A stretch of DNA of 64,000 nucleotides, from the IMG/VR virus record IMGVR_UViG_3300036985_004624. One strand, given 5' to 3'. Positions 1-43,738 of this stretch are shown here, one piece after another; within the stretch, counting starts at the first letter, position 1, and each line of letters opens with the position of its first letter. Position numbers and translations under genes: made by a program. The notes beneath the pieces are model-generated. The model searched no databases, was not told the origin of the DNA, and saw nothing but the letters and a program-made list of their open reading frames with translations. Origin of the DNA: a virus.

Positions 1-2092
1 AAGTGGCTTTAGTGGAACAAGTGGCTGGTCTGGAACAAGCGGAGAAAGCGGCTTTAGTGGTGTAAGTGGCTGGTCTGGTACATCTGGCGAAAGTGGCTTT
101 AGTGGAACAAGTGGCTGGTCTGGAACAAGCGGAGAAAGCGGCTTTAGTGGTGTAAGTGGCTGGTCTGGTACATCTGGCGAAAGTGGCTTTAGTGGAACAA
201 GTGGCTGGTCTGGAACATCTGGAACAAGTGGTGTAAGTGGATGGTCTGGTACAAGCGGAGAAAGCGGCTTTAGTGGTGTAAGTGGGTGGTCTGGTACAAG
301 CGGAGAAAGCGGCTTTAGTGGTACAAGTGGCTGGTCTGGTACAAGCGGAGAAAGCGGCTTTAGTGGAACAAGTGGTTGGTCTGGTACATCTGGCGAAAGC
401 GGCTTTAGTGGAACAAGTGGCTGGTCTGGTACATCTGGCGAAAGTGGCTTTAGTGGTGTAAGTGGCTGGTCTGGTACAAGCGGGGAAAGCGGCTTTAGTG
501 GTGTAAGTGGCTGGTCTGGTACAAGCGGAGAAAGCGGCTTTAGTGGTGTAAGTGGCTGGTCTGGTACATCTGGCGAAAGTGGCTTTAGTGGAACAAGTGG
601 CTTTAGTGGAACAAGTGGCTGGTCTGGTACAAGCGGAGAAAGCGGCTTTAGTGGAACAAGTGGCTGGTCTGGTACAAGCGGAGAAAGCGGCTTTAGTGGT
701 GTAAGTGGTTGGTCTGGTACATCTGGTACAAGCGGTATAAGTGGCTGGTCTGGAACAAGTGGTACAAGCGGAATAAGTGGCTGGTCTGGAACAAGTGGTA
801 CAAGCGGAATAAGTGGCTGGTCTGGAACAAGTGGTACAAGCGGAATAAGTGGCTGGTCTGGAACAAGTGGTACAAGCGGAATAAGTGGCTGGTCTGGTAC
901 ATCTGGCGAAAGCGGCTTTAGTGGAACAAGTGGCTGGTCTGGTACATCTGGCGAAAGCGGCTTTAGTGGAACAAGTGGTTGGTCTGGTACATCTGGCGAA
1001 AGCGGTACAAGTGGTTGGTCTGGTACATCTGGCGAAAGCGGTACAAGTGGTTGGTCTGGTACATCTGGCGAAAGCGGCTTTAGTGGAACAAGTGGTTGGT
1101 CTGGAACAAGCGGAGAAAGCGGCTTTAGTGGAACAAGTGGTTGGTCTGGTACATCTGGAACAAGTGGTTGGTCTGGTACAAGCGGAACAAGTGGCTTTAG
1201 TGGAACAAGTGGCGTAAGTGGCTGGTCTGGAACAAGTGGTACAAGCGGAGAAAGCGGCTTTAGTGGAACAAGTGGCGTAAGTGGCTGGTCTGGTACATCT
1301 GGAACAAGTGGCTGGTCTGGTACAAGCGGAGAAAGCGGCTTTAGTGGAACAAGTGGCGTAAGTGGCTGGTCTGGCACAAGTGGAACAAGTGGCTTTAGTG
1401 GAACAAGTGGCTGGTCTGGTACAAGCGGAGAAAGCGGCTTTAGTGGAACAAGTGGCTGGTCTGGTACATCTGGAACAAGTGGTGTAAGTGGCTGGTCTGG
1501 TACAAGCGGAACAAGTGGTTGGTCTGGTACAAGCGGAGAAAGCGGCTTTAGTGGAACAAGTGGCTGGTCTGGTACATCTGGAACAAGTGGTGTAAGTGGC
1601 TGGTCTGGTACAAGCGGAACAAGCGGCTGGTCTGGTACAAGCGGAACAAGTGGCTGGTCTGGTACAAGCGGAACAAGTGGCTGGTCTGGTACAAGCGGAA
1701 CAAGTGGCTGGTCTGGAACAAGCGGCTGGTCTGGAACAAGCGGAGAAAGCGGCTTTAGTGGAACAAGTGGCTGGTCCGGTACATCTGGCGAAAGCGGCTT
1801 TAGTGGAACAAGTGGCTGGTCTGGAACATCTGGTATATCAGGTGCAAGCACAAGTGGTTGGTCTGGAACATCTGGCGAAAGCGGCTTTAGTGGAACAAGT
1901 GGATGGTCTGGTACAAGTGGAACAAGTGGATGGTCTGGTACAAGTGGAACAAGTGGATGGTCTGGTACAAGTGGAACAAGTGGATGGTCTGGTACAAGTG
2001 GAACAAGTGGCTGGTCTGGTACAAGTGGAACAAGTGGCTGGTCTGGTACAAGTGGCTGGTCTGGTACAAGCGGAGTAAGTGGCTTTAGTGGC
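1..2092 (+). repeat. Coding tandem repeat block 1 ([15 protein letters not shown] triplets)
   Basis: 9-bp based units such as agtggctggtctggtaca and agcggagaaagcggcttt; near-perfect 36-bp (about 734-890) and 27-bp (about 1892-2030) sub-arrays. Confidence 0.95.
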
Positions 2093-5000
2093 TCACCGGG
2101 TTCTTCAACATTTGGGCGTGTTTGGTACTATCAACAAGAGCCATCGGGCGTAGGAACCTACGAAACACTATCACTTAATCCAACAGACATTTTATCCACA
2201 GATGTCACAGTAACTATTACTAGTGGATCGGGTACAGTGCTAATAGACGGGTATATTACTCCGGCGGGCGACCCAAATATTACTGTTATTCCGTCAGGCG
2301 AAATAGGATTTGATACTTACAGGTATGTTAGCGCGACTACAGGAACAACTACATTAACTTATGAAGTATATAAGTATGCGTTAGATACCACTGAAACGTT
2401 CTTATTCTCCATTACTGGAGCAGATATAACTGATACGATTATAACAATTGGTTCTACGGTTACTTATGTAAACACTCCTATTGTTCTTCTGGCTACAGAT
2501 AGAATAATAGTTAAGGTATACGCTCAAACAACAAGTGCTACGTCTGTAACAGTGAATTTTTATTACGGTGCTAATTACTCTTCACATATATTAACTTCGA
2601 TAGGTCAGGGAATAAGCGGAATAAGTGGCTGGTCTGGCACATCTGGTGTAAGTGGCTGGTCTGGTACAAGCGGTACAAGTGGCTTTAGTGGAACAAGTGG
2701 CTGGTCTGGTACAAGCGGAACAAGTGGCTTTAGTGGAACAAGTGGCTGGTCTGGTACAAGCGGCGTAAGTGGGTGGTCTGGTACAAGCGGAACAAGCGGT
2801 ATAGGTTTAAGTGGTTATAGCGGTCAGGCTGGTGCAAGCACAAGCGGTTACAGTGGAATTAGTGGTTGGTCTGGAACATCTGGCGTAAGCGGCTGGTCTG
2901 GAACATCTGGTACAAGTGGAATTAGTGGCTACAGTGGAATTAGTGGCTGGTCTGGTACAAGTGGTACAAGTGGCTACAGTGGAATTAGTGGCTGGTCTGG
3001 AACAAGCGGCGTAAGTGGCTGGTCTGGTACAAGTGGTACAAGTGGCTGGTCTGGTACAAGTGGTACAAGTGGCTGGTCTGGTACAAGTGGTATAAGTGGC
3101 TGGTCTGGTACAAGTGGAACAAGTGGCTGGTCTGGTACAAGTGGAACAAGTGGCTGGTCTGGTACAAGTGGAACAAGTGGCTGGTCTGGTACAAGTGGAA
3201 CAAGTGGCTACAGTGGAATCGCTGGTACAAGTGGCTACAGTGGAATTAGTGGCTGGTCTGGTACAAGTGGTACAAGTGGCTGGTCTGGTACAAGTGGTAT
3301 AAGTGGCTGGTCTGGCGTAAGTGGCTACAGTGGTATAAGTGGCTGGTCTGGAACAAGTGGCGTAAGTGGCTGGTCTGGTACATCTGGCGAAAGTGGCTTT
3401 AGTGGAACAAGTGGCTGGTCTGGTACAAGTGGCGAAAGTGGCTACAGTGGAATCGCTGGTACAAGTGGCTACAGTGGAATTAGTGGCTACAGTGGAATTA
3501 GTGGCTGGTCTGGTACAAGCGGAACAAGTGGCTGGTCTGGTACAAGCGGAACAAGTGGCTGGTCTGGTACATCTGGCGAAAGTGGCTGGTCTGGTACAAG
3601 CGGAACAAGTGGCTGGTCTGGTACAAGCGGAACAAGCGGCTGGTCTGGTACAAGCGGAACAAGCGGAACAAGTGGCTGGTCTGGAACAAGCGGAACAAGT
3701 GGCTACAGTGGAACAAGTGGCTGGTCTGGTACAAGCGGCGTAAGTGGCTGGTCTGGTACATCTGGAACAAGCGGAACAAGTGGCTACAGTGGAATAAGTG
3801 GCTGGTCTGGAACAAGCGGCTACAGCGGTATTAGTGGTTGGTCTGGAACAAGCGGCTACAGCGGTATTAGTGGTTGGTCTGGAACAAGTGGCTACAGCGG
3901 TATTAGTGGTTGGTCTGGAACAAGTGGCTACAGCGGTATTAGTGGTTGGTCTGGAACAAGTGGCGTAAGTGGCTACAGTGGAATTAGTGGCTGGTCTGGA
4001 ACAAGTGGCGTAAGTGGCTGGTCTGGTACATCTGGAACAAGCGGCTACAGCGGAGTTAGTGGTTGGTCTGGCACATCTGGTGTATCTGGATGGTCTGGTG
4101 TCAGTGGCTATTCAGGCATCAGTGGCTGGTCTGGAACAAGCGGAACAAGCGGAACAAGCGGTTACAGTGGAATAAGTGGCTGGTCTGGTACAAGCGGCGT
4201 AAGTGGCTGGTCTGGAACAAGCGGAACAAGCGGAACAAGTGGCTGGTCTGGAACAAGCGGAACAAGTGGAACAAGCGGTTACAGTGGAATAAGTGGTTGG
4301 TCTGGCACATCTGGTACAAGTGGCTACAGTGGTATCGCTGGTACAAGTGGCTACAGTGGTATAAGTGGCTGGTCTGGTACAAGTGGAATAAGTGGTTGGT
4401 CTGGCACATCTGGTACAAGTGGCTACAGTGGTATCGCTGGTACAAGTGGCTACAGTGGTATAAGTGGCTGGTCTGGTACAAGCGGAACAAGTGGCTACAG
4501 TGGTATCGCTGGTACAAGTGGCTACAGTGGTATCGCTGGTACAAGTGGCTACAGTGGTATAAGTGGCTGGTCTGGTACAAGTGGTACAAGTGGCTACAGT
4601 GGAATCGCTGGTACAAGTGGCTACAGTGGAATTAGTGGCTTAGGATTAAGTGGCTACAGTGGAATCGCTGGTACAAGTGGCTACAGTGGAATTAGTGGCT
4701 GGTCTGGTACAAGCGGCGTAAGTGGCTACAGTGGAATTAGTGGCTGGTCTGGTACAAGCGGCGTAAGTGGCTACAGTGGAATTAGTGGTCTAGGATTAAG
4801 TGGTTACAGCGGTATCAGTGGATCAGGTTTAAGTGGATATAGTGGTGTAGGTAGCGGCGGATCTTCTGGATATTCGGGTATTTCGGGTTCCAGTGCTAGT
4901 GGATCGTCGACTATAGTAGCACTCAACTTTGGAACTACACCAGTGACATCAAAATCATTCTCCATTGTAGATGCAGCAGCATTAACAACAAGTAAAATTC

Positions 5001-5173
5001 AGATGCAACCTGTTGCATCTACCACTGGTTCTGCATTAGGTGGCGACGAGTATGAAATGGATAATTTCTCGTGTGCCGCATACTGTTTAGTAAACGGCAC
5101 TATTATTGCATATATACAAGCCTTCCCAGGACCTGTGAGAGACAAACGTAACTTTATTTACATAATAGGATAG
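1..5173 (+). CDS. Giant Ser-Gly-X (collagen-like, Pro-free) repeat protein, probable virion fibre; 5' end outside window
   Basis: The frame starting at nt 2 is open without a stop to TAG at 5171-5173 (>=1723 aa), so the ORF-track start at 2237 is internal. Two SGX blocks (about 2-2092 and 2608-4890) flank a globular segment (about 2100-2607); about 95-aa C-terminal domain. Confidence 0.85.
2608..4890 (+). repeat. Coding tandem repeat block 2 ([12 protein letters not shown] triplets)
   Basis: Same 9-bp periodicity; Tyr/Ile largely replace the Phe/Glu of block 1. Confidence 0.95.
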
Positions 5174-5175
5174 AT

Positions 5176-5835
5176 ATGGCAATTATTCAAGATCCGAGGC
5201 CGGGCGCCAGTAGTGCAATTATAGTAGACCCGACATTCGATGCTATGAGACTTTCCTTACGTCCCGCAGAATGTCAGGGGGCATATCGTTTCTCTATGAG
5301 AAGCGGAACTATAGCTGCTGCAACTGCTGCAGGAATACAGTTCATGTTCAGATACACAGGTACAGGCTCCTGTCAGGTACACTCTGTAAGGGTCGGACTA
5401 CAATCTACTGCGGCATATACACAGAATAATATGACTTTTACATTGAATGTTGTGCGAGGTTGGTCAGTAGGTGATACAGGCGGCACTCAGGCTACGTTGG
5501 GTAATGTACAAAAAGTAAGATCAGCGATGACTCAGACTCAAGTTGATATACGATATCCCACAACCGGTACGCTTACTGCTGCGGCGGCGACGGCCGGCAT
5601 AGAAGATCCGGCGCCATTTGCTTCTGCACAGATGGACTGTCCTGCCGCGCCACTTCGTGCTCAACCAATGCAAGAATTTCTTGATGAGTCATGGTTTACA
5701 AAACCGCTTACGTTGACTAACAATGAAGGATTTAGAGTGCGTAATCAATCAGCATACGGCGCAGTCGGTACTTCTGTTGTTGTATTCAGTGTGTTCTGGT
5801 CTGAATATCCTGCTGCTGCAACATTCTTCTACTAA
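5176..5835 (+). CDS. Putative virion protein, paralogue 1 of 3
   Basis: Shares DPTF-x-A-x-R..RP-x-E..GAYR...GTIAAATAAG and PL-x-L...EGFR-x-RN...W-x-E with the next two ORFs. Confidence 0.7.
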   Translation: MAIIQDPRPGASSAIIVDPTFDAMRLSLRPAECQGAYRFSMRSGTIAAATAAGIQFMFRYTGTGSCQVHSVRVGLQSTAAYTQNNMTFTLNVVRGWSVGDTGGTQATLGNVQKVRSAMTQTQVDIRYPTTGTLTAAAATAGIEDPAPFASAQMDCPAAPLRAQPMQEFLDESWFTKPLTLTNNEGFRVRNQSAYGAVGTSVVVFSVFWSEYPAAATFFY

Positions 5836-5854
5836 ATACTAAAAGGAATCAAAT

Positions 5855-6487
5855 ATGGCACAAATACAATCGGGCGCAGATACAACTCTATTAACAGTCG
5901 ACCCAACATTCAATGCAGCTCGTGTATCGATTCGGCCACCAGAAGTAACTGGGGCATATCGTTGTACTAAAACTACAGGCACAATAGCCGCTGCTACAGC
6001 CGCTGGCGTTATGGCAGCATTTAGATATCCAGGCACTGGCGTAGCAGTTGTGGCTTCGGTCAGAATCGGCATTAATCTACTTACAGCATACACAGCTGGA
6101 TCTATTATTTTTAGTGTATGGGGTACACGAAGTTACACCGCAACAGAAACAACAAACTACACCGCTGCAACGCTGACAGGTAATAATGCAAAACTTCGTA
6201 CTAGTATGGCAACATGCTCCTCCTTATTTGGGGTAGCTACCACAACAGGTATTACAGGAGGTACAGGAACAGATGATTCTCAACCGCTCGGTTCATGTAC
6301 ATTCACCTTGCCTGCGACAGTAGCCGGTCAATCAGTTCAAGACTTCTTCACATTTAATATGCAGAGTTTTCCGTTAATACTTGGACAGAATGAAGGTTTT
6401 AGACTTCGTAACGATACAGCTTTTGCATCAGCAGGTACATCCAATCTTGTAATTTCAGTCGAATGGTTTGAGGCCACTTCGTATTAA
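5855..6487 (+). CDS. Putative virion protein, paralogue 2 of 3
   Basis: Same motifs; AAGGA SD and CTAAATA upstream. Confidence 0.7.
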   Translation: MAQIQSGADTTLLTVDPTFNAARVSIRPPEVTGAYRCTKTTGTIAAATAAGVMAAFRYPGTGVAVVASVRIGINLLTAYTAGSIIFSVWGTRSYTATETTNYTAATLTGNNAKLRTSMATCSSLFGVATTTGITGGTGTDDSQPLGSCTFTLPATVAGQSVQDFFTFNMQSFPLILGQNEGFRLRNDTAFASAGTSNLVISVEWFEATSY

Positions 6488-6488
6488 T

Positions 6489-7148
6489 ATGGCAATAATT
6501 AAATCAGGAGATACAGCGGATGGGTACTGGCAGGTAGACACAACAGCTAAAGCCGGCAAAGCGAGCGTTCGTTCTCAGGAGATCGGAACGGGCGGATACT
6601 ATCGTGCTACGCTAAACTCAGGCACTATTGCTGCGCCAGCAGCAGGATCTATCTTGTATGCTTTTCAAAATCCGTCGACTAGTCCTGATCTTGCAATAAT
6701 AATGGCACTGGCTCCGGGTCTTCGTGCAGTAGTTGGCAACGCTACCCCTTCTTGTTTCGTACTGAGTGCATATATAACACGATCTTATACTGTACTAGAT
6801 ACAACTGGTGCAGCGGCGGCGGTATCGTTTAAAGGTCAAATGATTACACAATCTTCACAACAGAATGCTTTATATCGTATTGCTAATACAGGGGCCATGT
6901 CTGGTGGTACAGGAACAGACGATGCCCAGCCTTTTTCTAGTATGGTTTTCACCCATCCGGGGACAATCAGCACATTAGGTGCCCAAACATTTTCTACGGT
7001 ACATATGAGTGGTATGTCGATGCCGCAATATCCAATTGTTCTTGCACCTGGAGAAGGTATCCGTGTTCGTACAGATCAGGCATGGCCTGCGAATAATACA
7101 GCAGTTCTTTTTATGGATGTAGCTTGGTTAGAAACAATTACGTATTAA
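6489..7148 (+). CDS. Putative virion protein, paralogue 3 of 3
   Basis: Start moved to MAIIKSG (6489) by homology to the paralogues; GGTGTDD-x-QP and PIVLAPGEGIRVR motifs. Confidence 0.7.
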   Translation: MAIIKSGDTADGYWQVDTTAKAGKASVRSQEIGTGGYYRATLNSGTIAAPAAGSILYAFQNPSTSPDLAIIMALAPGLRAVVGNATPSCFVLSAYITRSYTVLDTTGAAAAVSFKGQMITQSSQQNALYRIANTGAMSGGTGTDDAQPFSSMVFTHPGTISTLGAQTFSTVHMSGMSMPQYPIVLAPGEGIRVRTDQAWPANNTAVLFMDVAWLETITY

Positions 7149-31226: not shown

Positions 31227-31703
31227 TTATTCGAACTCCTTGTCTTCCCTGTGTCCTACTCTCATAGCCATATTAGCATCTGTTTCTCTTACTTCCACCT
31301 TACAGCACCAAACTCGTTCTGCCTCTGCTGAACCGCAATTGGGCAGAAAAATTGTGTTTATGTACTCATAAATAAAATCGGCAAGACCTTCGCAGCCTGT
31401 TTTTTCTACTACAGTAATCTTTGCCAATCTTAATTGACCAAGATGAAGCAATTCTTCTTTCATCGGGTCATCCTGCGCTACAAGTAATGTATGATCAAAC
31501 CAATCTTCCAATACACCCTTAAGTGGTTTTAATCCGCCGAAATCAAATACCCAATTACGAGCATCTAGAGTGTCTGATTCAAATTCTAAATGAAAAGATA
31601 GTGCATATCCATGAATAAGATTGCAATGGGAATCTGATCGCCATTGTCTATAAGCTACTGGCCCAATTTGTTTATATGTTTTAGTTGAAATATATTTTGT
31701 CAT
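31227..31703 (-). CDS. queD: 6-carboxytetrahydropterin synthase (QueD/PTPS)
   Basis: HCNLIHGY, WVFDFG, FDH, GCE, VRET. Confidence 0.9.
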   Translation of the reverse strand: MTKYISTKTYKQIGPVAYRQWRSDSHCNLIHGYALSFHLEFESDTLDARNWVFDFGGLKPLKGVLEDWFDHTLLVAQDDPMKEELLHLGQLRLAKITVVEKTGCEGLADFIYEYINTIFLPNCGSAEAERVWCCKVEVRETDANMAMRVGHREDKEFE

Positions 31704-31858
31704 AATGCCTCTTTTTCGTCTTTATTACAGCAGGTACAATTCCTGCCTTGATCACAATCGTGTGTACAATTCGATTCAATGATTCTTCCATATATTATTG
31801 CTAATCTAAGAACAATGCACAGATTTAATGCGAGTATTATTAAGAGTAATGCAATCAT
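31700..31858 (-). CDS. 52-aa membrane-anchored Cys-rich microprotein (not in ORF track)
   Basis: MIALLLIILALNLCIVL...NCTHDCDQGRNCTCC...; ATGA overlaps at both ends. Confidence 0.65.
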   Translation of the reverse strand: MIALLLIILALNLCIVLRLAIIYGRIIESNCTHDCDQGRNCTCCNKDEKEAL

Positions 31859-32322
31859 AGTAGTTTCTCCTTACAATTTTCAGAATCTGCCACACGCTTT
31901 CGTAGATTACTGGAACTAAAACTATGATCGCGTCCGTTATATACTATTTCAATATTGCGGTTACGACATATATCTTTGCCAGTAAAGGATATGTCTTTAT
32001 ACTCTACACCTAGTATTCTTACATTAACTGGTAAAATTAATAATAAGTCTTCTAGATCTTTTTCAGTTTCATATACAACTACTTCATCTACATTTCTATT
32101 TGTAGCAAGTTGTATTTGTCTTTCCACGATACTTTGAACTGGTTTGTTCTTAATTCCTGGCCTGTCGATTGTCGGATCTGTCTGCAATCCTGCTATTAAA
32201 TAGTCGCAATGATTTTTAGCTTCGCTCAACATTGCTATATGTCCAGCATGTAGTAAATCGAAGGTAGAGAAAACAATCCCTACCTTCATACCTTTTAGTT
32301 CTTTACTTTTATTAAAGATCAT
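31855..32322 (-). CDS. TagD-like cytidylyltransferase
   Basis: FDLLHAGH, RDHSFSSS.LR. Confidence 0.88.
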   Translation of the reverse strand: MIFNKSKELKGMKVGIVFSTFDLLHAGHIAMLSEAKNHCDYLIAGLQTDPTIDRPGIKNKPVQSIVERQIQLATNRNVDEVVVYETEKDLEDLLLILPVNVRILGVEYKDISFTGKDICRNRNIEIVYNGRDHSFSSSNLRKRVADSENCKEKLL

Positions 32323-32333
32323 ATAAGATATCC

Positions 32334-33017
32334 TTATCTCCGTGAATCTACCGGCACTAATCTCATAAATTCAGAACGAACGTGCGATTCATCTTTAAAA
32401 CACCCGCCCAATTTACTTGTTACAGTACTCGATCCCACATCTTCCACGCCACGACTCTTAACACAAAAATGTTGAGCATGAATAACTACTCCGATATTAT
32501 CTGTTTCAAGAATATATTGTAGTGCATGATAAATCTGCTCAGTTAGTCGCTCTTGGATTTGCGGCCTCTTACTAAAGTATTCAACGATCCGATTAATCTT
32601 ACTAAGGCCCAGTACCTTTTGCTTAGGAATATAACCGACCGTTGCAACACCATCGATAACAACAAAGTGATGTTCGCAGTTAGATTGTACATTGATATTC
32701 CTTTCAACGACCATTTCGTCGTATTTCATTTTATTATCTACAGTGGTGCATTTAGGAAATGCTTCGTAGTCAAGACCCCAGAAGATTTCGTTTACATACA
32801 TTTTAGCGACACGCTTAGGTGTTTCTTCTAAACTATCATCGCTCAGGTCTAGCCCTAGCGTTTCCATGATAGCAGCGAAATGATGTTCGATCTTTTCTAT
32901 TTTTTCTTTACGATCCATAAAATCAGATTCGCAGGGTGTTTCGACACCCATTCTAACTAGATGCTCGTGTACTTCCTGACCCAATCCCGGGTCGCATTTT
33001 GTTTTATTATATGACAT
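32334..33017 (-). CDS. folE: GTP cyclohydrolase I
   Basis: ETPKRVAKM, SNCEHH, GLSK..R, RPQIQERLT, HFCVKSRG. Confidence 0.97.
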   Translation of the reverse strand: MSYNKTKCDPGLGQEVHEHLVRMGVETPCESDFMDRKEKIEKIEHHFAAIMETLGLDLSDDSLEETPKRVAKMYVNEIFWGLDYEAFPKCTTVDNKMKYDEMVVERNINVQSNCEHHFVVIDGVATVGYIPKQKVLGLSKINRIVEYFSKRPQIQERLTEQIYHALQYILETDNIGVVIHAQHFCVKSRGVEDVGSSTVTSKLGGCFKDESHVRSEFMRLVPVDSRR

Positions 33018-34087: not shown

Positions 34088-34627
34088 CTATTCTTTTGCT
34101 GGATACAATTTATAAAAATCGTGATTTCCAACTGACATTGTTTTAATCAACTCGTGTTTCCAAGCAGGATTACTTGTATGTGGATTATGGAAATGAGTTG
34201 CCCCATTTGTATTATCATCCACATTACCTCCAAGCACAGTAATCGCTACAATACTGGCAACCTGGAATTGATCTACTACTCGTTGATTAACTGTTCCATC
34301 TTTATTTCTCACAGGTATTTCTCTACCTTTCTTGTCATTTTCGCAATACCAGGAAAACGCACAGACAAGTCGTTTACTGATTCTTGATACAGCGGTTTGT
34401 TTAACCACTGCACAAACAGTATCCGGAAATCGCCCATCATTGGCGCGATTTAAGGTAACAGAAGCAACTGCAAATTGACCTCGGATATCTTCATTTCTTG
34501 CTTCATAATAGATATTCTCTGCCAAGCAATACGCTTGTTCAGGGTCTACCTTAGATGTGTCAACGTCTATACCGACGATGTTAGCTGTACTAATGAGATA
34601 CGCTAATAATAATTTAGCTGTAATCAT
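34088..34627 (-). CDS. SleB-like cell wall hydrolase (Hydrolase_2)
   Basis: CLAENIYYEARNE..GQ.AVA.V.LNR...FP.TVC.VV.Q, AFSW, GATHFH; N-terminal signal-like segment. Confidence 0.92.
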   Translation of the reverse strand: MITAKLLLAYLISTANIVGIDVDTSKVDPEQAYCLAENIYYEARNEDIRGQFAVASVTLNRANDGRFPDTVCAVVKQTAVSRISKRLVCAFSWYCENDKKGREIPVRNKDGTVNQRVVDQFQVASIVAITVLGGNVDDNTNGATHFHNPHTSNPAWKHELIKTMSVGNHDFYKLYPAKE

Positions 34628-35279
34628 TCTTACCTCGCGATTTATATATTCGCCCCTTCTTCCACTCGACTCCCGGCGATTCCTTTTGCATTTTACACAG
34701 TGTACCGTTGTTCCACCATAATACACCACGCGATAATCTCCCATTATACCACCCAGTGCCTGGACATTCCTTTGATCTCATCTCCGTTATTCCATCAGTC
34801 CAGTGTGGCAAATTCGATTTTAATCTGGCACTTCTTTTAATTCCGTTATTATCCTCTTCAGCTATAAGTCGTTTCTGTACTTCCGAAAATATTTTACCAG
34901 ATTCTTGTGTATGTTTCTTACCGCGCATCTTCATACGTGTCTCTTCTGTATGAATATACCCTTCCATAGACTTAATAAACATAATTCGTGCCTGTTCATA
35001 TGCTCGCGCAGTAATCTTGTATTTTCTTATTAATGTGCCGTGCATATTCTTCTGTGACATAAACCACAATCCCTGTGCTAATTTAGAATTGGTTGGATAA
35101 ATTTTGCATAATAGATAATGTGCTACATAATGCTCTCTGGCCGTAAGTATAGCAATATTTTCTCTATCGTTTGTACCCTTCATCGAAACAGGAATAATAT
35201 GGTGCCTCTCTGTATAATCGCTAATTTTACGATTCAGTGAACGATGTATTAAATCTGAATATATTTTTGTATAATTCAA
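34614..35279 (-). mobile_element. Free-standing HNH homing endonuclease with NUMOD3-like and W-x-N/D-G repeats
   Basis: ERHHIIP...G.N...N...LTAREHYVAH.LL; HTEETRMKM. Confidence 0.88.
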
Positions 35280-35408
35280 TACTCTCCCCTAATGCTCCCT
35301 CTAAACTCACAAGGGATAGTTATTTAGCAATAGTATTATAGCATAAAGTACATTGTGAAGTCAAATCAAAAATTATGGATAAATAATGTAAATGAAAAAG
35401 GGTTTCTT

Positions 35409-37487
35409 ATGAAGTTATCACATGTCACAGAAAATGGTATTCCAACGGGAGATGAAGCTGCCGAAAGAGTCACTAAGTACTTACAATCAAGGAAACATCT
35501 AAAGGCGGCGCCGGCTGCACATGTAAGAAATCCGGGCAATAATGAATATCATAGGGAACAAGATCGGTCAGAACAAAGACGAAGGGACGAACTATCATCT
35601 ATAGAAGAATCTCCTGATATGCCTGAGCCGGGCGATAATATACGAACTAGAAAAACAAAGATGGAAGGTAAGGTTAAGAAAGTTAGTGGTGATATAGTCT
35701 TATTTCAATTGGTCGATGGTAGAATGATGAAGACATCTATTGGAAATGTTATAGTGATAGAAAAACTTGCAGACGAGGATGACGAGATCATGGAAGCAGG
35801 TTGGAAAAATGCAGTCGCTGCCGGTGCTATGGCATTAGGCTCATTAGGATCAGGTGGCGCACATGCCGGTGGCGTATCGCTTGACCACGGACAAGGTTTT
35901 CAACCACAAGATCAGGTTACATTAAATCAACGAGTTCAGCAGCAACAAAATCGGCAGGATCTCAGCAATTATAGCACAGAATATTTACAGAAAGCGGCCG
36001 ACCCCAATCGTTTCGGACGGTTTATGGTAAGTGTCGACAATGCTAAAGCAGAATTACAAGATAGAGAGAACGGCAAACAACAGACAGTTGCGGCGCCAAC
36101 CGCAGAAAAACAGTCAAGTGGGTATAGCACAGAATATTTACAGAAAGCTGCCGATCCGAAACGTTTTGGTAGATTTCTAATTAGTGTAGAAAAAGCACAG
36201 GAGTTATTAGATCAAATGAAAGAATCTTTCGAACTTAACGAAATATCAGACACAGTTATCAATAAATGGCAGAAGGAAAAACTTGGACCGCAAATGGATG
36301 CTGCAAAAGCAAGAGGCGATACAGAAGAGGAAGATCGGGTTTATGGTAAGATTATAAAATCTACAAAACATATGGGCGATAACTTCGAAAGAAGGGCAGC
36401 GCAGAAGGTGGCAGCACAGCAAGATGTTGAGGAAGGGAAGGCAGATTATAATTTTAGCATAGAAGACTTAAAACGCCTCGAACAAATTAGAGATCTTCCT
36501 ACATTAAAAGTTCAAGCGATGAACTTAATTAGTAAACCTAGCATTAAGCCGATGAAGCCGGAGAAGATCGAATGGTTCAAAAATTCGTTAGAAAGAATGA
36601 ATAGCCCGACAAAAGTTATTAAATTAATGTACGATCTATTATTAAGTGGCGAAGGTAATTCGGTTATAGGTACAAGATCTTCGATGAAGTCTAATGACTA
36701 TCGTCAACGATTCGGCGAGCAAGGTGTGGACGAAGAGCAAATTAATGAATTAGATCGCGAAACTGTGAAAAGATACGTACCAGCAAGAATAAATAAGGCA
36801 AAAGAATTAGCTCGAACAGACTTTGATAAGGCCGAAAGAGTCACACAACAAGATTTACCGCGTGCATTAGGTAAACTTAAAGATAAGTCATATGGTTACG
36901 CTGGAAAGGATATACTGTTCTATGCTAAATTATCTAATGGACAGAAAGTTTATGCCAGAATTAAAGATAAAGAGCAGTTAGGAGACTTACAACAACAATA
37001 TGCTGATGCAGAATGTAAGATGTTCGATTTTAATCGTCCCGATATACAAAAATGGTTGGAAGCACGCAGAATTAATCTGCGTAAATTCGAGCCAGGTATG
37101 GTTCAGACTATGGGTAACGTAACAGAAGGCGAAGAAATCAATAATCCTGCCGATACAGTAACAGTAGATGTACCTTTATTGATTCGGATCATGGAATACG
37201 CCAAAGAAGACGCAAAAACCGACTTAGATTTGCACAATGCAGCCGAGAAGTTAATCGAGTTAAGCCAGGAAGGCAGAACACTCACAATGGATGACTACGC
37301 AACCATGATTGGTGATGTAAATGAAGGTGGTATGGGTGGCATAAACCGGTCTGCACCTTCCAACGATGTGAGTTATCAGGATGTACTAGATGACTCAACA
37401 GATGAGTGGAGGGGTGATACTGTAAAGGTGAAGGAATCAATACCTTATTCAGTAAGACTTAAAACTTTCTTGAAAGATATCGATTAA
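35409..37487 (+). CDS. Modular acidic polyprotein-like head protein
   Basis: Start MKLSHVTE; GATAAATA upstream; internal duplicated YSTEYLQKAADP module. Confidence 0.7.
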   Translation: MKLSHVTENGIPTGDEAAERVTKYLQSRKHLKAAPAAHVRNPGNNEYHREQDRSEQRRRDELSSIEESPDMPEPGDNIRTRKTKMEGKVKKVSGDIVLFQLVDGRMMKTSIGNVIVIEKLADEDDEIMEAGWKNAVAAGAMALGSLGSGGAHAGGVSLDHGQGFQPQDQVTLNQRVQQQQNRQDLSNYSTEYLQKAADPNRFGRFMVSVDNAKAELQDRENGKQQTVAAPTAEKQSSGYSTEYLQKAADPKRFGRFLISVEKAQELLDQMKESFELNEISDTVINKWQKEKLGPQMDAAKARGDTEEEDRVYGKIIKSTKHMGDNFERRAAQKVAAQQDVEEGKADYNFSIEDLKRLEQIRDLPTLKVQAMNLISKPSIKPMKPEKIEWFKNSLERMNSPTKVIKLMYDLLLSGEGNSVIGTRSSMKSNDYRQRFGEQGVDEEQINELDRETVKRYVPARINKAKELARTDFDKAERVTQQDLPRALGKLKDKSYGYAGKDILFYAKLSNGQKVYARIKDKEQLGDLQQQYADAECKMFDFNRPDIQKWLEARRINLRKFEPGMVQTMGNVTEGEEINNPADTVTVDVPLLIRIMEYAKEDAKTDLDLHNAAEKLIELSQEGRTLTMDDYATMIGDVNEGGMGGINRSAPSNDVSYQDVLDDSTDEWRGDTVKVKESIPYSVRLKTFLKDID

Positions 37488-37768: not shown

Positions 37769-39211
37769 TTACTTCCTCGCGTTAGCGCGAACTTCGTCAA
37801 AGGTGATTTCCTTCACCAAGACACCATCACGATAGACTTCCGAGAGAGCCTCGACCCACGGGCCAATGCTCTTGTCAGCCCAACCACGGGGTTGTTCAAC
37901 AGCAGATTCAAACGAACCGCCGCTTTGCCAAAGAGTCACGCGACCCTTCTTGGATGCCTTGCCGTGATCAGTGATCGGATCCTTGAACACATCACGCCAT
38001 TCTACCCGAGACGGGGTGACAAATGTTGGATCATCGCTAAACTCTACATACTCACGAACACCGATCGCAGAACACTTCATTGCAAAACGCATTGTGTCAC
38101 GATTGACTTGTTGAAGCAGCGCACCACCTTGACCAAATGCCACATTGTCTGCACTGAATCCAGCAAGTTCCATACAGAACAAAATGCTGCGAATTGTAGC
38201 ATGATCAATGCCATCACCTTGGATAACGCGGACATTGTTTAATACACGGAATCCCTTGGCGTTCTTCACAGAACCGTAGTACTTTTCCAGAATGTAAAGA
38301 CACTTGGTGACCACTTCGCTTGGTTCACCAGAGTCAGGACGAATGACAACAACAGCGCCTGAGTCAAGCACGTCTTGTTTCAGTTCTGTGCCCCACATCT
38401 TGCAGGCATTGTAAATGTCGTATGAGTCCGAGACGAACGCAATCGGGGCGCCGGCCTTGCCGTGTGTTTTCAGCATGTTCCTGTAGGAATCTACTTCGTG
38501 GTCCTTGCCCCAGGATGTTACAGTAGAATGCTCCATAGCAGGTATGCTGAACCCAGCAATACCAGCATTATAAAACTCACCTGCGTACAATAACCCAGAT
38601 ATGTTGTCAGTTCCCATGAAGTTAATGAGGTGTGCTGCTCCACCCAATCCGGAACTTTCGAAGCTACTAACGCCACGGGCGCCAAAGTCGTGAAGCTTAA
38701 AATCAATAAGAGTAGGGTCACCAGTTTTCTCCAAGTAGTCAAGAATAATTTTCTTCGATTCGTAGCTGTTTGTAGCTACTGTGGTAGGATACCAGATTGC
38801 GCGCAGAATGGCCGTTTCCAGGAAGCTTGTGAGCCACCAGCACTTCGGGTCGGTGTTGACGATTGTTGCTAGGACGTTCTTAGTCGGAATGAGTGTACCT
38901 TCTGGGGCCGCTTTAATGACGACTGGAAGACGACCTTCGTGCGCCTCAAGAATATATTCCCACCCTTCACGATAAAACGGTTCACCGTGAGCAGTGATAA
39001 TGGCTTCTGCAACATCGATATCTTCCTTGGTGATCGGAGTAGTCAAATACTCCTTGATGAATGCCTGCAATCCGAAAAAGACTGTTTTGTTCCACTGACC
39101 GCCACGCGATTCAATGTAAGAATACACATATTCGGTATTTTTAGGGTATTGATTCCACTGAGAGAATTTATAACTGTCACTATTAAGTATCAGGTTGTGA
39201 GATAATTTCAT
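37769..39211 (-). CDS. nadV: Nicotinamide phosphoribosyltransferase
   Basis: DSYK.S, LHDFGARG, SIPA.EHS, VSDSYD, IRPDSG, QGDG, KDPITD..K.SKKG. Confidence 0.97.
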   Translation of the reverse strand: MKLSHNLILNSDSYKFSQWNQYPKNTEYVYSYIESRGGQWNKTVFFGLQAFIKEYLTTPITKEDIDVAEAIITAHGEPFYREGWEYILEAHEGRLPVVIKAAPEGTLIPTKNVLATIVNTDPKCWWLTSFLETAILRAIWYPTTVATNSYESKKIILDYLEKTGDPTLIDFKLHDFGARGVSSFESSGLGGAAHLINFMGTDNISGLLYAGEFYNAGIAGFSIPAMEHSTVTSWGKDHEVDSYRNMLKTHGKAGAPIAFVSDSYDIYNACKMWGTELKQDVLDSGAVVVIRPDSGEPSEVVTKCLYILEKYYGSVKNAKGFRVLNNVRVIQGDGIDHATIRSILFCMELAGFSADNVAFGQGGALLQQVNRDTMRFAMKCSAIGVREYVEFSDDPTFVTPSRVEWRDVFKDPITDHGKASKKGRVTLWQSGGSFESAVEQPRGWADKSIGPWVEALSEVYRDGVLVKEITFDEVRANARK

Positions 39212-39271: not shown

Positions 39272-39300
39272 ATTGTAGCAGAATTACTATTTTAAGTCAA
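39272..39300 (-). promoter_or_regulatory. sigma70-type promoter TTGACT-17-TACAAT for nadV
   Basis: Near-consensus; predicts an about 55-nt leader containing both hairpins. Confidence 0.7.
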
Positions 39301-40276
39301 TTTTTTTGGACAATACCAAATTCCCGCACGTAACTAATCCTTGTTCCTCGTCCATCGAAGGAACAAAAACTAACACATCGTAGCCTGCCAGTTTAAGTGA
39401 TTCCTCTACCGTCTTATACGGTAGATAGGAGTCATATCCGCCAACAGTTTTAATGTTGTTTTTCCTACATGCGTCATTATTATGAATCGGAGTAATCTTT
39501 ACCATAAATTTATTCGGATCAAAAAGACCCAATAGCTTATTAGCATCTATTTCGTAGTTAGTGCTATAAGCAAAATTCAAACAATATTTTCTGCCGATAG
39601 GATCAGGCAGTCGATTTCCAATATCGGATATTTCTTTAAGGGTTAGCTGCCCATACGCAAACATATCATTCCGTTGTTCCTCACTAGTTGAATTTATGCT
39701 CAACTGTAATCCTGCCTGGCCATTATATAGCTCATTTTTAATCTGGCACCATTCATTTAATCTCGCTTCATTGTGCTTAAACTTATTCGGTAACGAAGTA
39801 GTTAGAACAGGATGAATAACTTCGGTACGGAGATTTAACTCTTGCTGAATAATATGCTTGTTAGTAAATAACCATCTTGCGAAGTTGAAAACATGATCAT
39901 TAACAATAGGTTCGCCCATCCGAGCAAAATGAATATTCAACCGGTCAGTATAATGAACTTCGGGAAAACATTTTACTGCCTCATAAAACTGTAACTTAAG
40001 ATCGTCGAAGGATGCATTACCTTTAAATGGAATCTTTGGCACATCGCAAAATCGGCAGTTTTGGATACAACCATATTGCGTTGAGAGTGTGATCACCCAT
40101 TTTTCAGATAAGGGCAAACAATTGCCATTTGCAACTCCGTTGATTTCATTTGGAAATCCGAGAAAATCAGCTTTTATGTTTCGTGATTTTCCGTAGTCTC
40201 CGATGGATAATGTTTCGAGTTCGCCACGTAATCCATCGACTGTAAAAAGGTAGCCAGTTGGTATCTTATTTCTCAT
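39287..40276 (-). CDS. RlmN/Cfr-like radical SAM protein
   Basis: STQYGCIQNCRFC (CxxxCxxC), MGEP, LQLSIN, C-terminal CGNL. Confidence 0.85.
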   Translation of the reverse strand: MRNKIPTGYLFTVDGLRGELETLSIGDYGKSRNIKADFLGFPNEINGVANGNCLPLSEKWVITLSTQYGCIQNCRFCDVPKIPFKGNASFDDLKLQFYEAVKCFPEVHYTDRLNIHFARMGEPIVNDHVFNFARWLFTNKHIIQQELNLRTEVIHPVLTTSLPNKFKHNEARLNEWCQIKNELYNGQAGLQLSINSTSEEQRNDMFAYGQLTLKEISDIGNRLPDPIGRKYCLNFAYSTNYEIDANKLLGLFDPNKFMVKITPIHNNDACRKNNIKTVGGYDSYLPYKTVEESLKLAGYDVLVFVPSMDEEQGLVTCGNLVLSKKIDLK

Positions 40277-41187
40277 TATACAATTCCCAATGTTGTACGA
40301 AGCATCGAGATAGTATCATCGTCGTATCGTATTCTAACCATTTTATATCCATTATCGTTTGCATATGATGTCTTAAATTCATCATTAGTCTTCATATCCT
40401 CCAGATCGTTACAACGATATCCTTCCTCATAATGTTGTTTGCCATCATATTCTAATAGAATATTATATTCAGGCAAATAAAAATCATATTTTAATTTACC
40501 TTTATTTCTAATGCAATTATGAAATGTTTTCTGGGTTGTATATTCGATATGATGTCTAATCAAAAAATTTCTAATTAAATTCTCTCCCTTTGATGAAGAA
40601 TTACAACTGGGACAGCCTACACCACGGCCGTGATCATTTGCTTGTTGTTTAAATATGCCGTGCTTGGGACAAATAATCCGAATTTTAGATGTTGCTCGCT
40701 TATAATCTTCGAAAACATAATTGTATCTATATGAATTTCCATGATGGGATATAGAATTCAATAAAAAATCGTTAATTAATATTTCTTTTGCTTCAGTTGC
40801 ACATTCGGGACACCCGCATCCGCTCAAATGATCGCTATATGATTGTTCAAAAACGCCATGTTTTCTACATATAATTTTTAATTTACTACCAGAGGTATAA
40901 TCAGCATCATTTAAGTAATATTCATATAATTCCCCGTGTTTATGGAGTATTTTACTCTTCATATATTCCCACCCCTTTGGACCAAACGGAGAACACGATC
41001 GACACCCGTATTTAGATGCCTTCATTAGGTGGAAGAATGACGTTTCAAATTCACCATGCTCAAAGCAAACAAAAGTTTCTTTATAATCTACACCACGAAA
41101 AATAAATGTAGGCAAGGTTGTAATTTTGTTACCATATTTTTCATATATTTCTGATACAGCAGATGATGTTGTTCGTTTCTTTTTCAT
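40276..41187 (-). mobile_element. Putative homing endonuclease: three C-x-x-HG-x-F zinc repeats plus Vsr/DUF559-like nuclease
   Basis: CFEHGEF, CRKHGVF, CPKHGIF; SKGE..I, YDFYLP..NILLEYDG.QHY. Confidence 0.8.
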
Positions 41188-41231
41188 AGAATATCTCCTA
41201 TATTGTATTTACCGATAATCATCGGAATAGA

Positions 41232-42260
41232 TTATGCAATCAAGGAAGAAATAATTTCAAAATGATCTTCAAAACATACGGCAGAATCCAATTCGCTTAA
41301 CGGCATAAACCGAGCCTTATCAGCGTCGTCTATTCCCCTCACTTTCGGTAATACTCCGTCGGGAAGATCTATTTTAAATACATGGGTTATTGTGCGGCCG
41401 CGAGTACTTCGATCAATGGCATCAAACACCCTGACTTTATTAATATTACCGATCAGTACAGGGGATGGTACTTTAATCCCGGTCTCTTCTCGCAATTCCC
41501 TAATCATAGCATCTTGTATGCTTCGGTCAGTCTGTGCATTTAAAAACCCACCAGGCAATGCCCATAACCCCTTACCGGGTTCACTCTTACGACGAATCAT
41601 TAGTATATGCCCGGAGCATATTACCACTGCATCTGTTGTTACAAAAACAGGCGCATATGGTAAACTTGAATATTGTTTCTTATACATTTCAACAAATTCT
41701 CGTTCTCGAATAATTTGTTCGTATTCAGGTGTATCTTTCCAACCTTCGAGCAATCTAAATACAGGTTGTGGTACAACACCCTGAATAAAGTGCATATTAG
41801 CATCTCGACGAAAGTAAAGATCACGGATATTTGTAGCATTGAGTGGCTCCAATAACGGAACTTCTACTTGTTCCCATTGCGGAAACATATCAAGATAGAA
41901 ACAAGTGCTATCTTTCTTGTGACCAATCACACCAATTTTATCACCGGGCTGTGTATGTTTTGCCACAATAGACTGAATGCGACCAGCCCATGCTGTATCG
42001 TTATAAATTGTGTCTACATTATGCTCTATGCGAACTGCACATTCGGTTTCCGGAACTATATAGTTCAGAATATTTTCGAGCATGTTTTGGCGGTCTTTGC
42101 TTGTCCACGGATTCTTATAAGTCCGTGGTTGATTGGCACTGCCGACAATGATAATAATTTGTTTGGAGAGTTTGCTTGCTCTACGAATAATTTCTGTATG
42201 AGCGTTGTGGACCGGTTGAAAGCGGCCGATGAATACAAGTGTATGATACTGTTTTGTCAT
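41232..42260 (-). CDS. nadM: Bifunctional NMN adenylyltransferase / Nudix ADP-ribose pyrophosphatase
   Basis: FIGRFQPVHNAH, NATNIR; Nudix box GG.......RELREETG. Confidence 0.96.
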   Translation of the reverse strand: MTKQYHTLVFIGRFQPVHNAHTEIIRRASKLSKQIIIIVGSANQPRTYKNPWTSKDRQNMLENILNYIVPETECAVRIEHNVDTIYNDTAWAGRIQSIVAKHTQPGDKIGVIGHKKDSTCFYLDMFPQWEQVEVPLLEPLNATNIRDLYFRRDANMHFIQGVVPQPVFRLLEGWKDTPEYEQIIREREFVEMYKKQYSSLPYAPVFVTTDAVVICSGHILMIRRKSEPGKGLWALPGGFLNAQTDRSIQDAMIRELREETGIKVPSPVLIGNINKVRVFDAIDRSTRGRTITHVFKIDLPDGVLPKVRGIDDADKARFMPLSELDSAVCFEDHFEIISSLIA

Positions 42261-42970: not shown

Positions 42971-43738
42971 TCATTTAAACTCAACAAATCTGTCAACAAC
43001 AAAGCCCTTCTTACCCGATAGCATTACTGCACCAGATAAAAATCCGCCCTTACCGCAACCGGTATCTAAAAATATCACCTTGCCACCATTCTTATTAGAA
43101 ACGGTCATCGGCTCTGTTATATCAACATTATGAATAGGCATTTTATCATGCCCCACCATAACCGTTTTCCCCAAAGGTACATCTTCTATCCAGTTATATA
43201 GCCTAACAGGATATCCATCATCATATTTTTGACCGTTTGTTTCGCCTACTAAAAACCTAGCCTTCTCTGTTTTACTCATAACAAAGCCAGATTCCCACAT
43301 ACGCTTGTGGCATCCTGCATGTACTAAAGTAAACTCGTCGAATTTATGAAAGAATCCAGAAAACATCTTATCATCTATCATAGAGACATACATTTTTAAG
43401 AAATCTTCCATTCTGTCCGCCCCAACGTCGTCTAATGTACGCTTGGCATCCGTAGAAAAGCTTACTTTTGCACCATCCGCATATCTACGAAATTTATCAT
43501 CGTGATTTCCTATCACTAAACCCGCACGACCTTCGTACATTGCTTCATACATTGCTTTAACTACTTCGAATGGTTGGCGGCCACGGTCAACTAAGTCGCC
43601 CATAGACATAAAGAAGAAATTCTCGCTCTTGGCGAAATTATACGCCTTTTCGAAGGAAGTATAATCTCCGTGGGTATCCCCAAACACTAACATTCCATCG
43701 AAACCATTTTTCACATAATTTTCTAAACTATTATACAA
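42971..43738 (-). CDS. Calcineurin-like metallophosphoesterase
   Basis: GDTHG, GDLVDRG, GNHD, VHAG, VGH, DTGC. Confidence 0.92.
   Translation of the reverse strand: MYNSLENYVKNGFDGMLVFGDTHGDYTSFEKAYNFAKSENFFFMSMGDLVDRGRQPFEVVKAMYEAMYEGRAGLVIGNHDDKFRRYADGAKVSFSTDAKRTLDDVGADRMEDFLKMYVSMIDDKMFSGFFHKFDEFTLVHAGCHKRMWESGFVMSKTEKARFLVGETNGQKYDDGYPVRLYNWIEDVPLGKTVMVGHDKMPIHNVDITEPMTVSNKNGGKVIFLDTGCGKGGFLSGAVMLSGKKGFVVDRFVEFK

Follow-up and report, generated by a model that had tools for sequence, protein, structure and literature searches.

A radical SAM protein with one of the two catalytic cysteines of RlmN and Cfr, encoded between the NARP2 genes of a phage and recurrently found near NAD salvage genes

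We analyzed a gene for a radical S-adenosylmethionine (SAM) enzyme, here called rSAM, in a 64,000-nucleotide stretch of virus DNA (IMG/VR record IMGVR_UViG_3300036985_004624); this whole stretch is referred to as the window. The open reading frame (ORF) of rSAM is intact, and within the sequence TAATG its ATG start shares bases with the stop of the HNH gene that precedes it. Together, the HNH and rSAM genes form one cassette, located on the same strand between the two genes of NARP2, which is summarized in PMC13464706 as a phage NAD+ reconstitution counterdefense pathway of two enzymes, NAMPT and NMNAT. Judging from the motifs that are kept, rSAM is predicted to encode an intact and catalytically competent radical SAM enzyme. 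The features of the locus are listed in Table 1.

Table 1. Features of the rSAM locus (positions in the window)
Feature	Positions	Strand	Remark
Radical SAM gene rSAM, 329 aa, long (phage-type) form, phrog_24834	39287..40276	-	RlmN/Cfr sister family without a characterized member
rSAM residues 1-58: three short beta strands with invariant E21, then ~30-residue insert GDYGK...FLG	40103..40276	-	
rSAM T63 codon	40088..40090	-	RlmN Cys118 position
rSAM C70-x3-C74-x2-C77	40046..40069	-	[4Fe-4S]/SAM cluster motif; RlmN C125/C129/C132
rSAM ARMGEP, residues 118-123	39908..39925	-	Counterpart of RlmN GMGEP SAM-binding motif
rSAM VTCGNL, residues 315-320	39317..39334	-	C317 aligns to methyl-carrier Cys355 of RlmN
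NAMPT (nicotinamide phosphoribosyltransferase)	37769..39211	-	NARP2 component, downstream in the same operon
NMNAT-Nudix bifunctional enzyme	41232..42260	-	NARP2 component, upstream in the same operon; phrog_395, phrog_1198
HNH-type homing endonuclease with DUF723 and treble-clef zinc fingers	40276..41187	-	Translationally coupled to rSAM
1802-nt segment holding the HNH gene and rSAM codons 1-283	39424..41225		Missing in sister phage L103 and the commoner natural allele

The protein was placed in register with RlmN by three alignments (phmmer against the PDB, a profile of 27 family sequences against the PDB, and hhalign of the family profile against RlmN). All three agreed that T63 falls at the position of Cys118 in RlmN, that C70, C74, and C77 correspond to Cys125, Cys129, and Cys132, and that C317 corresponds to Cys355 in the aCGQL loop. 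An earlier note on this DNA had quoted the motifs ITLSTQYGCIQNCRFC (residues 62 to 77), ARMGEP, VTCGNL, NGNCLP (containing C53), and KYCLN (containing C232), all of which are present in the 329-residue ORF, and its reading of a threonine at the Cys118 position together with a retained Cys355 was borne out. Within ARMGEP, R119 is specific to the family, and H116 just upstream is invariant in the long form. The family profile matched RlmN (6fz6) with an E value of 6.7e-22 and Cfr (9p0p) with an E value of 2e-19, with about 260 residues aligned. In hhalign against RlmN of Escherichia coli K-12 (NC_000913), residues 54 to 320 were aligned onto RlmN residues 109 to 366 with a probability of 98.9%, while RlmN residues 1 to 108, comprising the helical N-terminal domain and linker, were left unaligned. 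In an AlphaFold2 model computed from the alignment of the family (predicted local distance difference test [pLDDT] score, 91.2; predicted TM score [pTM], 0.91), the N terminus likewise consists of three beta strands and then the loop insert, and the helical domain is absent, as the note had supposed. The insert, GDYGK...FLG, occurs in the long form only and occupies the place of the helical RNA-binding domain of RlmN. Foldseek searches with this model placed the RlmN proteins of E. coli and S. thermophilus at the top (TM score of ∼0.6), and Cfr (9p0p) was also a strong match at rank 16. Among the curated models, TIGR00048 gave 25.7 bits against a cut-off of 290 and TIGR04432 gave 25.4 bits against a cut-off of 550, so that both equivalog cut-offs were missed. 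As judged from these profile and model comparisons, the rSAM protein is a homolog of RlmN and Cfr with a similarity far beyond chance, yet it lies outside both equivalog families.

Relatives of the protein are numerous. It matches phrog_24834, whose function is unassigned in PHROG, over residues 5 to 326 (E = 3e-113). A word-indexed search returned 6741 relatives, the top 120 of them at 65 to 73% identity, and an exhaustive search of representatives yielded 510 clusters at 50% identity. The protein atlas clusters holding the family are unnamed and 73 to 91% viral, and a tractable cultured carrier is Bacteroides phage Versailles, with a homolog that is 53% identical. No paper describing the family was found in our literature search. 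To define the pattern of conserved residues, 310 full-length homologs were aligned, comprising 240 long-form sequences with the N-terminal insert and 70 short-form sequences; the rSAM protein belongs to the long form by its full-length match to phrog_24834, its GDYGK...FLG insert, its T63, H116, H155, and H265 residues, and its TCGN sequence.

In the column of Cys118, none of the 310 homologs has a cysteine. Threonine stands there in 238 of the 240 long-form sequences, and I, T, N, A, or V in the short-form ones. Four cysteines are conserved in both forms, namely, the three cluster ligands (97 to 100%) and the equivalent of C317 (98% in the long form and 93% in the short form). The earlier note had suggested checking by family alignment whether another cysteine, such as C53 or C232, fills the vacant site, and at the level of the family neither does: the C53 position is Cys in 54% and the C232 position in 68% of long-form members, and both are Cys in ∼0 to 1% of short-form members. 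The best of the extra cysteines, C270, is conserved only in the long form, at 83%. Moreover, some members have four cysteines in total, which makes a hidden second cysteine impossible in those members. As a control, 301 Clostridia genomes were searched with a profile, and every canonical RlmN or Cfr protein among the matches listed has the xCxSxQxGC motif, including its cysteine. Class A methylases are defined by two conserved cysteines, the second of which (C118 in RlmN and C105 in Cfr) has been called indispensable (PMC9692996). Judging from the alignment, the loss of Cys118 and of the N-terminal domain is a trait of the whole family, which probably arose within the RlmN/Cfr (class A methyl synthase) lineage. 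Family-specific residues that are invariant include E21, K59, R119, N126, Q191, S193, T197, R202, N234, K260, and E310, to which the long form adds T63, H116, H155, H265, and T316, located at or just past the ends of the barrel strands in the alignment and the AlphaFold2 model. T63 together with H116, H155, H265, and T316 may thus be candidates for a replacement catalytic apparatus.

Cellular relatives from a scan of species-representative genomes fell into two tiers, and neighborhoods were counted at the top 80 genome loci, 43 of which carry the short form. The short form, with 30 to 35% identity over residues 54 to 325, was found in a variety of anaerobic bacteria and archaea, among them Heimdallarchaeota, Thermotogota, and Bacteroidales. 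An isochorismatase-type cysteine hydrolase with its catalytic cysteine kept was present at 22 of the 43 short-form loci, and a flavoprotein of thioredoxin reductase (TrxR) fold, in some cases fused to rSAM, at 26. This flavoprotein has no CxxC motif and no conserved cysteine, indicating an FNR-type electron-transfer protein rather than a disulfide reductase; for the same reason, it was rejected as a source of the second thiol. In addition, triple fusions of about 810 residues (P0146, P0154, and L184) join a QueT-like energy-coupling factor (ECF) S-component, the rSAM domain, and an MtnN-type nucleosidase for methylthioadenosine, S-adenosylhomocysteine (SAH), or 5'-deoxyadenosine (5'-dA). The nucleosidase of P0154 passes the MtnN equivalog cut-off (223.9 bits against 169), and the N-terminal domains of P0146 and P0154 score above the Pfam cut-off for QueT. 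The fusions, with loci at L086:6001-8445 (P0154) and L087:3423-5885, stand alone in cellular contigs. A transporter, a hydrolase, and an enzyme that removes 5'-dA or SAH, as partners, speak for a small molecule as the substrate and for repeated turnover.

The hydrolase, flavoprotein, and short-form rSAM genes, sometimes fused, make up a conserved three-gene operon, seen at L042:4355-6819, at L061:4354-6843, and at about 25 further loci; one of its carriers is a complete Heimdallarchaeum chromosome.

Sensitive probing of the neighborhoods of the long form revealed NAD salvage genes within about 4 kb of rSAM in six independent lineages, or 9 of about 121 loci. These are the window phage with its sister phage L103 (NMNAT-Nudix/rSAM/NAMPT); a metagenome-assembled genome (MAG) of Woesearchaeota, L006 (rSAM-NMNAT-NrtR); three gut alphaproteobacterial MAGs, L021, L024, and L027 (PncB-PncA-rSAM-DUF5662-NrtR); and three viral contigs, with PncB and NrtR nearby in L092, PncA and PncB nearby in L148, and an NMNAT/Nudix-like gene directly downstream in L105. 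The best matches of the hydrolase in the alphaproteobacterial pncB-pncA operon are solved nicotinamidases. In other alphaproteobacterial MAGs, rSAM follows a prephenate-dehydratase-like (PDT) gene, and in gut alphaproteobacteria both these PDT-rSAM operons and the pncB operons are directly preceded by pairs of TAATAACA half-sites, in AT-rich DNA. The rSAM-NMNAT-NrtR operon of the Woesearchaeota MAG has just upstream of it a perfect 9+9 palindrome, TAGTGTATA-T-TATACACTA (L006:5930-5962), which is suggestive of a candidate NrtR operator. The long form is also present on MAG contigs of many phyla; a contig labeled Kaiserbacteria is phage-like. Our literature search found no paper linking a radical SAM enzyme with NrtR, and the NrtR regulon paper lists no radical SAM enzyme. 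Overall, the NAD association of the long form is enriched and far from universal, and the cellular NrtR operons are more specific evidence for it than the phage neighborhoods are.

In the three gut alphaproteobacterial MAGs, a DUF5662 protein (L021:4864-5361; L024 and L027 alike) always lies between rSAM and nrtR, and a search of the PDB with this protein returned no informative match.

Metagenomes of lake water and sediment from numerous studies contained the phage lineage, whose rSAM gene is polymorphic. In the sister phage L103, the NMNAT stop codon is joined directly to the last 46 rSAM codons at a CTAT microhomology; the conserved 3' remnant of rSAM remains in frame, which indicates a deletion of the cassette rather than a state preceding its insertion. 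L103 is a 134-kb IMG/VR record that CheckV rates as ∼35% complete and is thus a jumbo phage. The same joint (39423 to 41226), matching that of L103 exactly, was recovered in contigs from three freshwater sequencing runs, each belonging to a different study, although the shorter side of the joint, at 30 letters, is borderline. The word depths per sample were 27.5, 6.95, and 14.2 for the deletion joint and ∼5.4, 3.1, and 4.5 for the full cassette, placing the deletion allele at two to five times the depth of the full form in the three metagenomes. Since the deletion allele keeps the NARP2 genes, rSAM is dispensable, polymorphic, and unnecessary for NARP2; it is neither of the two NARP2 enzymes and is a passenger or adjunct of their operon. 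A scan for promoters and terminators at the locus found nothing above chance, and among the public runs, no RNA data set with the phage lineage was listed. PADLOC gave no match for rSAM or its operon partners, and a role of the operon as a defense system was rejected on this ground.

A second joint, from 39292 to 41129, was seen in run X3. It skips 1836 nt and would leave little of the rSAM gene and only a minor part of the HNH gene; its shorter side has 21 letters, and it is weakly supported.

Considering the family-wide loss of Cys118 and the N-terminal domain together with the partner contexts, the rSAM protein is not an ordinary RlmN or Cfr, and it is best understood as having another substrate or another chemistry. 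This was among the proposals of the earlier note, and it is favored by the small-molecule and NAD contexts; the note's other proposal, deliberate covalent trapping of host RNA, is unlikely, being in conflict with the cellular operons, the MtnN fusions, and the missing RNA-docking domain. The reading that we tentatively prefer combines SAM chemistry based on Cys317 and a non-thiol base with a nonribosomal substrate linked to nicotinamide and NAD salvage. The enzyme would reductively cleave SAM to give a 5'-dA radical, and Cys317 would serve either as an RlmN-style carrier of the methyl or methylene group or as a hydrogen-atom donor. The proton-abstraction or release step that Cys118 performs in RlmN would be taken over by a non-thiol residue, with H116, H155, and H265 as candidates, or by the substrate itself. 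Instead of methylating rRNA, the enzyme would act over many turnovers on a ubiquitous nonribosomal substrate, and the identity of 65 to 73% across more than 100 metagenome proteins fits such a universal substrate, most likely a small molecule of nicotinamide/NAD+ salvage such as a pyridine or adenine nucleotide, nucleoside, or base. In the window phage, rSAM would be a dispensable accessory gene that reached the NARP2 operon along with the homing endonuclease and that may serve there to widen or safeguard the supply of NAD precursors during infection.

Several observations weigh against this reading. The natural allele that lacks rSAM retains both NAMPT and NMNAT, so that rSAM is not an obligatory step of NARP2. 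Among 84 viral loci, no conserved neighbor of the long form was found, and rSAM stands alone there; about 90% of the phage loci have no NAD gene within 8 kb, and in large phages, rSAM lies near RNA ligase 1 or Thg1 about as often. The phage neighborhoods may merely mirror accessory or counterdefense islands. The operator evidence is weak, coming from AT-rich DNA in the case of both the palindrome and the TAATAACA pairs. In addition, the best PDB matches of the short-form hydrolase are isochorismatases of the EntB/VibB type rather than PncA, and its identification as a nicotinamidase was rejected as unsupported.

A more specific proposal, which we regard as rather doubtful, is that the family carries out a so far undescribed radical SAM reaction of NAD+ or nicotinamide metabolism by a one-cysteine version of class A methyl-synthase chemistry, common to phages, tiny-genome archaea, and gut bacteria. 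Examples would be the C-methylation, the repair, or the conversion to a salvageable form of a pyridine or adenine nucleotide or base. NAD+ metabolism is a central battleground between phages and the NAD-depleting defenses of bacteria. If the proposal is true, the step would serve phages as an adjunct to NAD+-reconstitution counterdefense and would stand under NrtR control in gut bacteria.

Among the other explanations, an RNA modification enzyme is the strongest, and we consider it unlikely. It would methylate or otherwise modify adenine in tRNA or another RNA, docking through the long-form N-terminal insert and using a non-cysteine base, and might thereby protect or repair tRNA during infection. 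The nearest relatives by fold and sequence are indeed RNA methylases, the long form adjoins T4-type RNA ligase 1 and Thg1-like tRNA repair genes (L095 and L173-L175), with RNA ligase 1 (Rnl1) also near rSAM in L092 and L094, and extreme conservation would fit a universal RNA target as well. However, the RNA-docking N-terminal domain is absent, no tRNA genes were found in the 64-kb window, and the cellular partners (hydrolase, flavoprotein, transporter, and nucleosidase) are handlers of small molecules; moreover, the cellular long form resides in NrtR and pncAB operons rather than in RNA-processing operons.

It is improbable that the enzyme acts in 7-deazaguanine salvage in the manner of QueL, cutting queuine or a similar base down to a precursor usable in the modification of tRNA or DNA. 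QueL (YP_001088187.1) was described in the queK-qrtT-queL locus of C. difficile (Yuan et al. 2019, as cited in PMC11477304 and PMC11570991), and the fusions of a QueT domain and a nucleosidase in P0146 and P0154 mirror the logic of that locus as given in the former source; moreover, genes for FolE and a QueD-like enzyme lie 6 to 8 kb from rSAM in the window. On the other side, only two members of the rSAM family were found among the 301 Clostridia genomes, whereas QueL is described as an enzyme of gut Firmicutes and thus probably belongs to a different radical SAM subgroup. No preQ1 riboswitch was detected with Rfam upstream of P0154 in L086, the sole fusion gene examined. FolE and QueD co-occur with rSAM at no other of about 120 loci, and neither TGT nor DpdA was found in the 134 kb of the sister phage, where QueC-like matches were weak. 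Membership in QueL was therefore rejected on indirect evidence, since the Clostridia search gave almost only canonical RlmN, and QueL is kept as an analogy of low probability. A 7-deazaguanine pathway in the phage was rejected as well, with FolE and QueD near rSAM only in the window lineage and no TGT or DpdA.

Still less probable is a hypermodification of phage or host DNA, for example, an adenine C-methylation directed against restriction. DNA-modifying enzymes are frequent in phages, and in some siphovirus-like contigs, rSAM lies in replication and recombination modules. However, no transglycosylase, kinase, or glycosylase is a conserved partner, the same protein occurs in cellular NAD operons, and the sister phage has lost rSAM with all else intact; an identity of 65 to 73% across unrelated phages is also atypical of DNA modification genes engaged in an arms race. 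Finally, a suicide enzyme whose Cys317 is cross-linked to host rRNA or tRNA in a lasting adduct, for which the cross-linking of the C118A variant of RlmN to RNA (PMC9692996) and the threonine at this position would speak, is hardly credible, given the family members in cellular operons, the MtnN fusions that clear a product and are needed only with turnover, the absent RNA-docking domain, the strong purifying selection on Thr63 and three histidines suggestive of a replacement catalytic apparatus, and the weakness of a stoichiometric trap as a weapon against ribosomes.

Elsewhere in the window, a cluster on the minus strand (31227-33017) encodes a QueD-like CPH4 synthase (31227-31703), a small protein resembling cytidylyltransferases (31855-32322), and FolE (GTP cyclohydrolase I; 32334-33017), representing the first steps of 7-deazaguanine or pterin synthesis. 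Two different homing endonucleases occur within 6 kb, one (34614-35279, minus strand) beside ThyA and an endolysin-like gene and the other being the HNH gene beside rSAM, which suggests active intron-less homing in this nucleotide-metabolism region. Between them, a 710-residue ORF without a PHROG match (35355-37487, plus strand) is the sole large plus-strand gene in a minus-strand block, and GC and AT skew are locally reversed there. A metallophosphoesterase gene near the NAD operon (42971-43738, minus strand), the N-terminal half of whose product matches the phosphatase module of the phage "RNA ligase" PHROG phrog_8238, possibly encodes an RNA-end-healing enzyme. At the 5' end of the window, positions 1-5173 (plus strand), together with 5176-7148, hold an ORF that is open at the window's edge and has at least 1723 residues. 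This stretch has a GC content of ∼0.48 to 0.52 and a GC skew of +0.18 to +0.42, while the rest of the window has a GC content of 0.35 to 0.41 and a negative skew; the ORF may encode a compositionally distinct structural or repeat protein or may be acquired DNA.

To our knowledge, class A radical SAM methylases are known only as rRNA or tRNA methylases. The novelty here lies in a class A methyl-synthase scaffold that carries a single catalytic cysteine, lacks the RNA domain, is common among phages, and recurs in connection with NAD salvage: the methyl-carrier loop is retained in thousands of phage and cellular genes, never together with the second cysteine or the RNA-docking domain. Solving the reaction would reveal either the RlmN mechanism working with a different base or a reuse of the scaffold for other radical chemistry, and the placement beside NAD salvage genes, NrtR, and NARP2 offers a testable link to NAD+ metabolism.

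Four known systems come closest. QueL, according to the texts cited above, is a radical SAM enzyme for the trimming of a salvaged base, with genetic ties to an ECF S-component and a nucleosidase, and the QueT-rSAM-nucleosidase fusions follow a like logic; the Clostridia search gave no evidence of QueL being a member of the rSAM family, and the phage-type members have no 7-deazaguanine context except in the window. With regard to NARP2, rSAM lies between both of its genes and shares their strand and operon, whereas the published pathway has two components and no radical SAM enzyme (PMC13464706); the NARP3 paper also has no radical SAM component. Cfr, the 23S rRNA m8A2503 methyltransferase (TIGR04432; PDB 9P0P), shares the class A architecture and the C-terminal cysteine (C338). 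However, Cfr retains its second cysteine, C105, and RNA-binding elements, the rSAM protein scores ∼25 bits against Cfr cut-offs of 530 to 550, and no sign of a role in antibiotic resistance was seen for rSAM. The best match in both sequence and fold is RlmN, the methyl synthase of m2A2503 in 23S rRNA and m2A37 in tRNA (TIGR00048; PDB 3RFA, 5HR7, and 6FZ6). Common to the two are the partial TIM-barrel radical SAM core with CxxxCxxC in place, the GEP SAM-binding motif, the S-(S/T)-Q sequence ahead of the cluster loop, and the C-terminal CG(Q/N) loop with its cysteine aligned to Cys355. Unlike RlmN, to which its identity is ∼16%, the rSAM protein lacks the helical N-terminal domain (RlmN residues 1 to 108), has a threonine for Cys118, and possesses an N-terminal insert of its own as well as H116, H155, and H265, which are invariant in the long form; its genes are found in the context of NAD salvage and small-molecule operons rather than of ribosome or tRNA genes.

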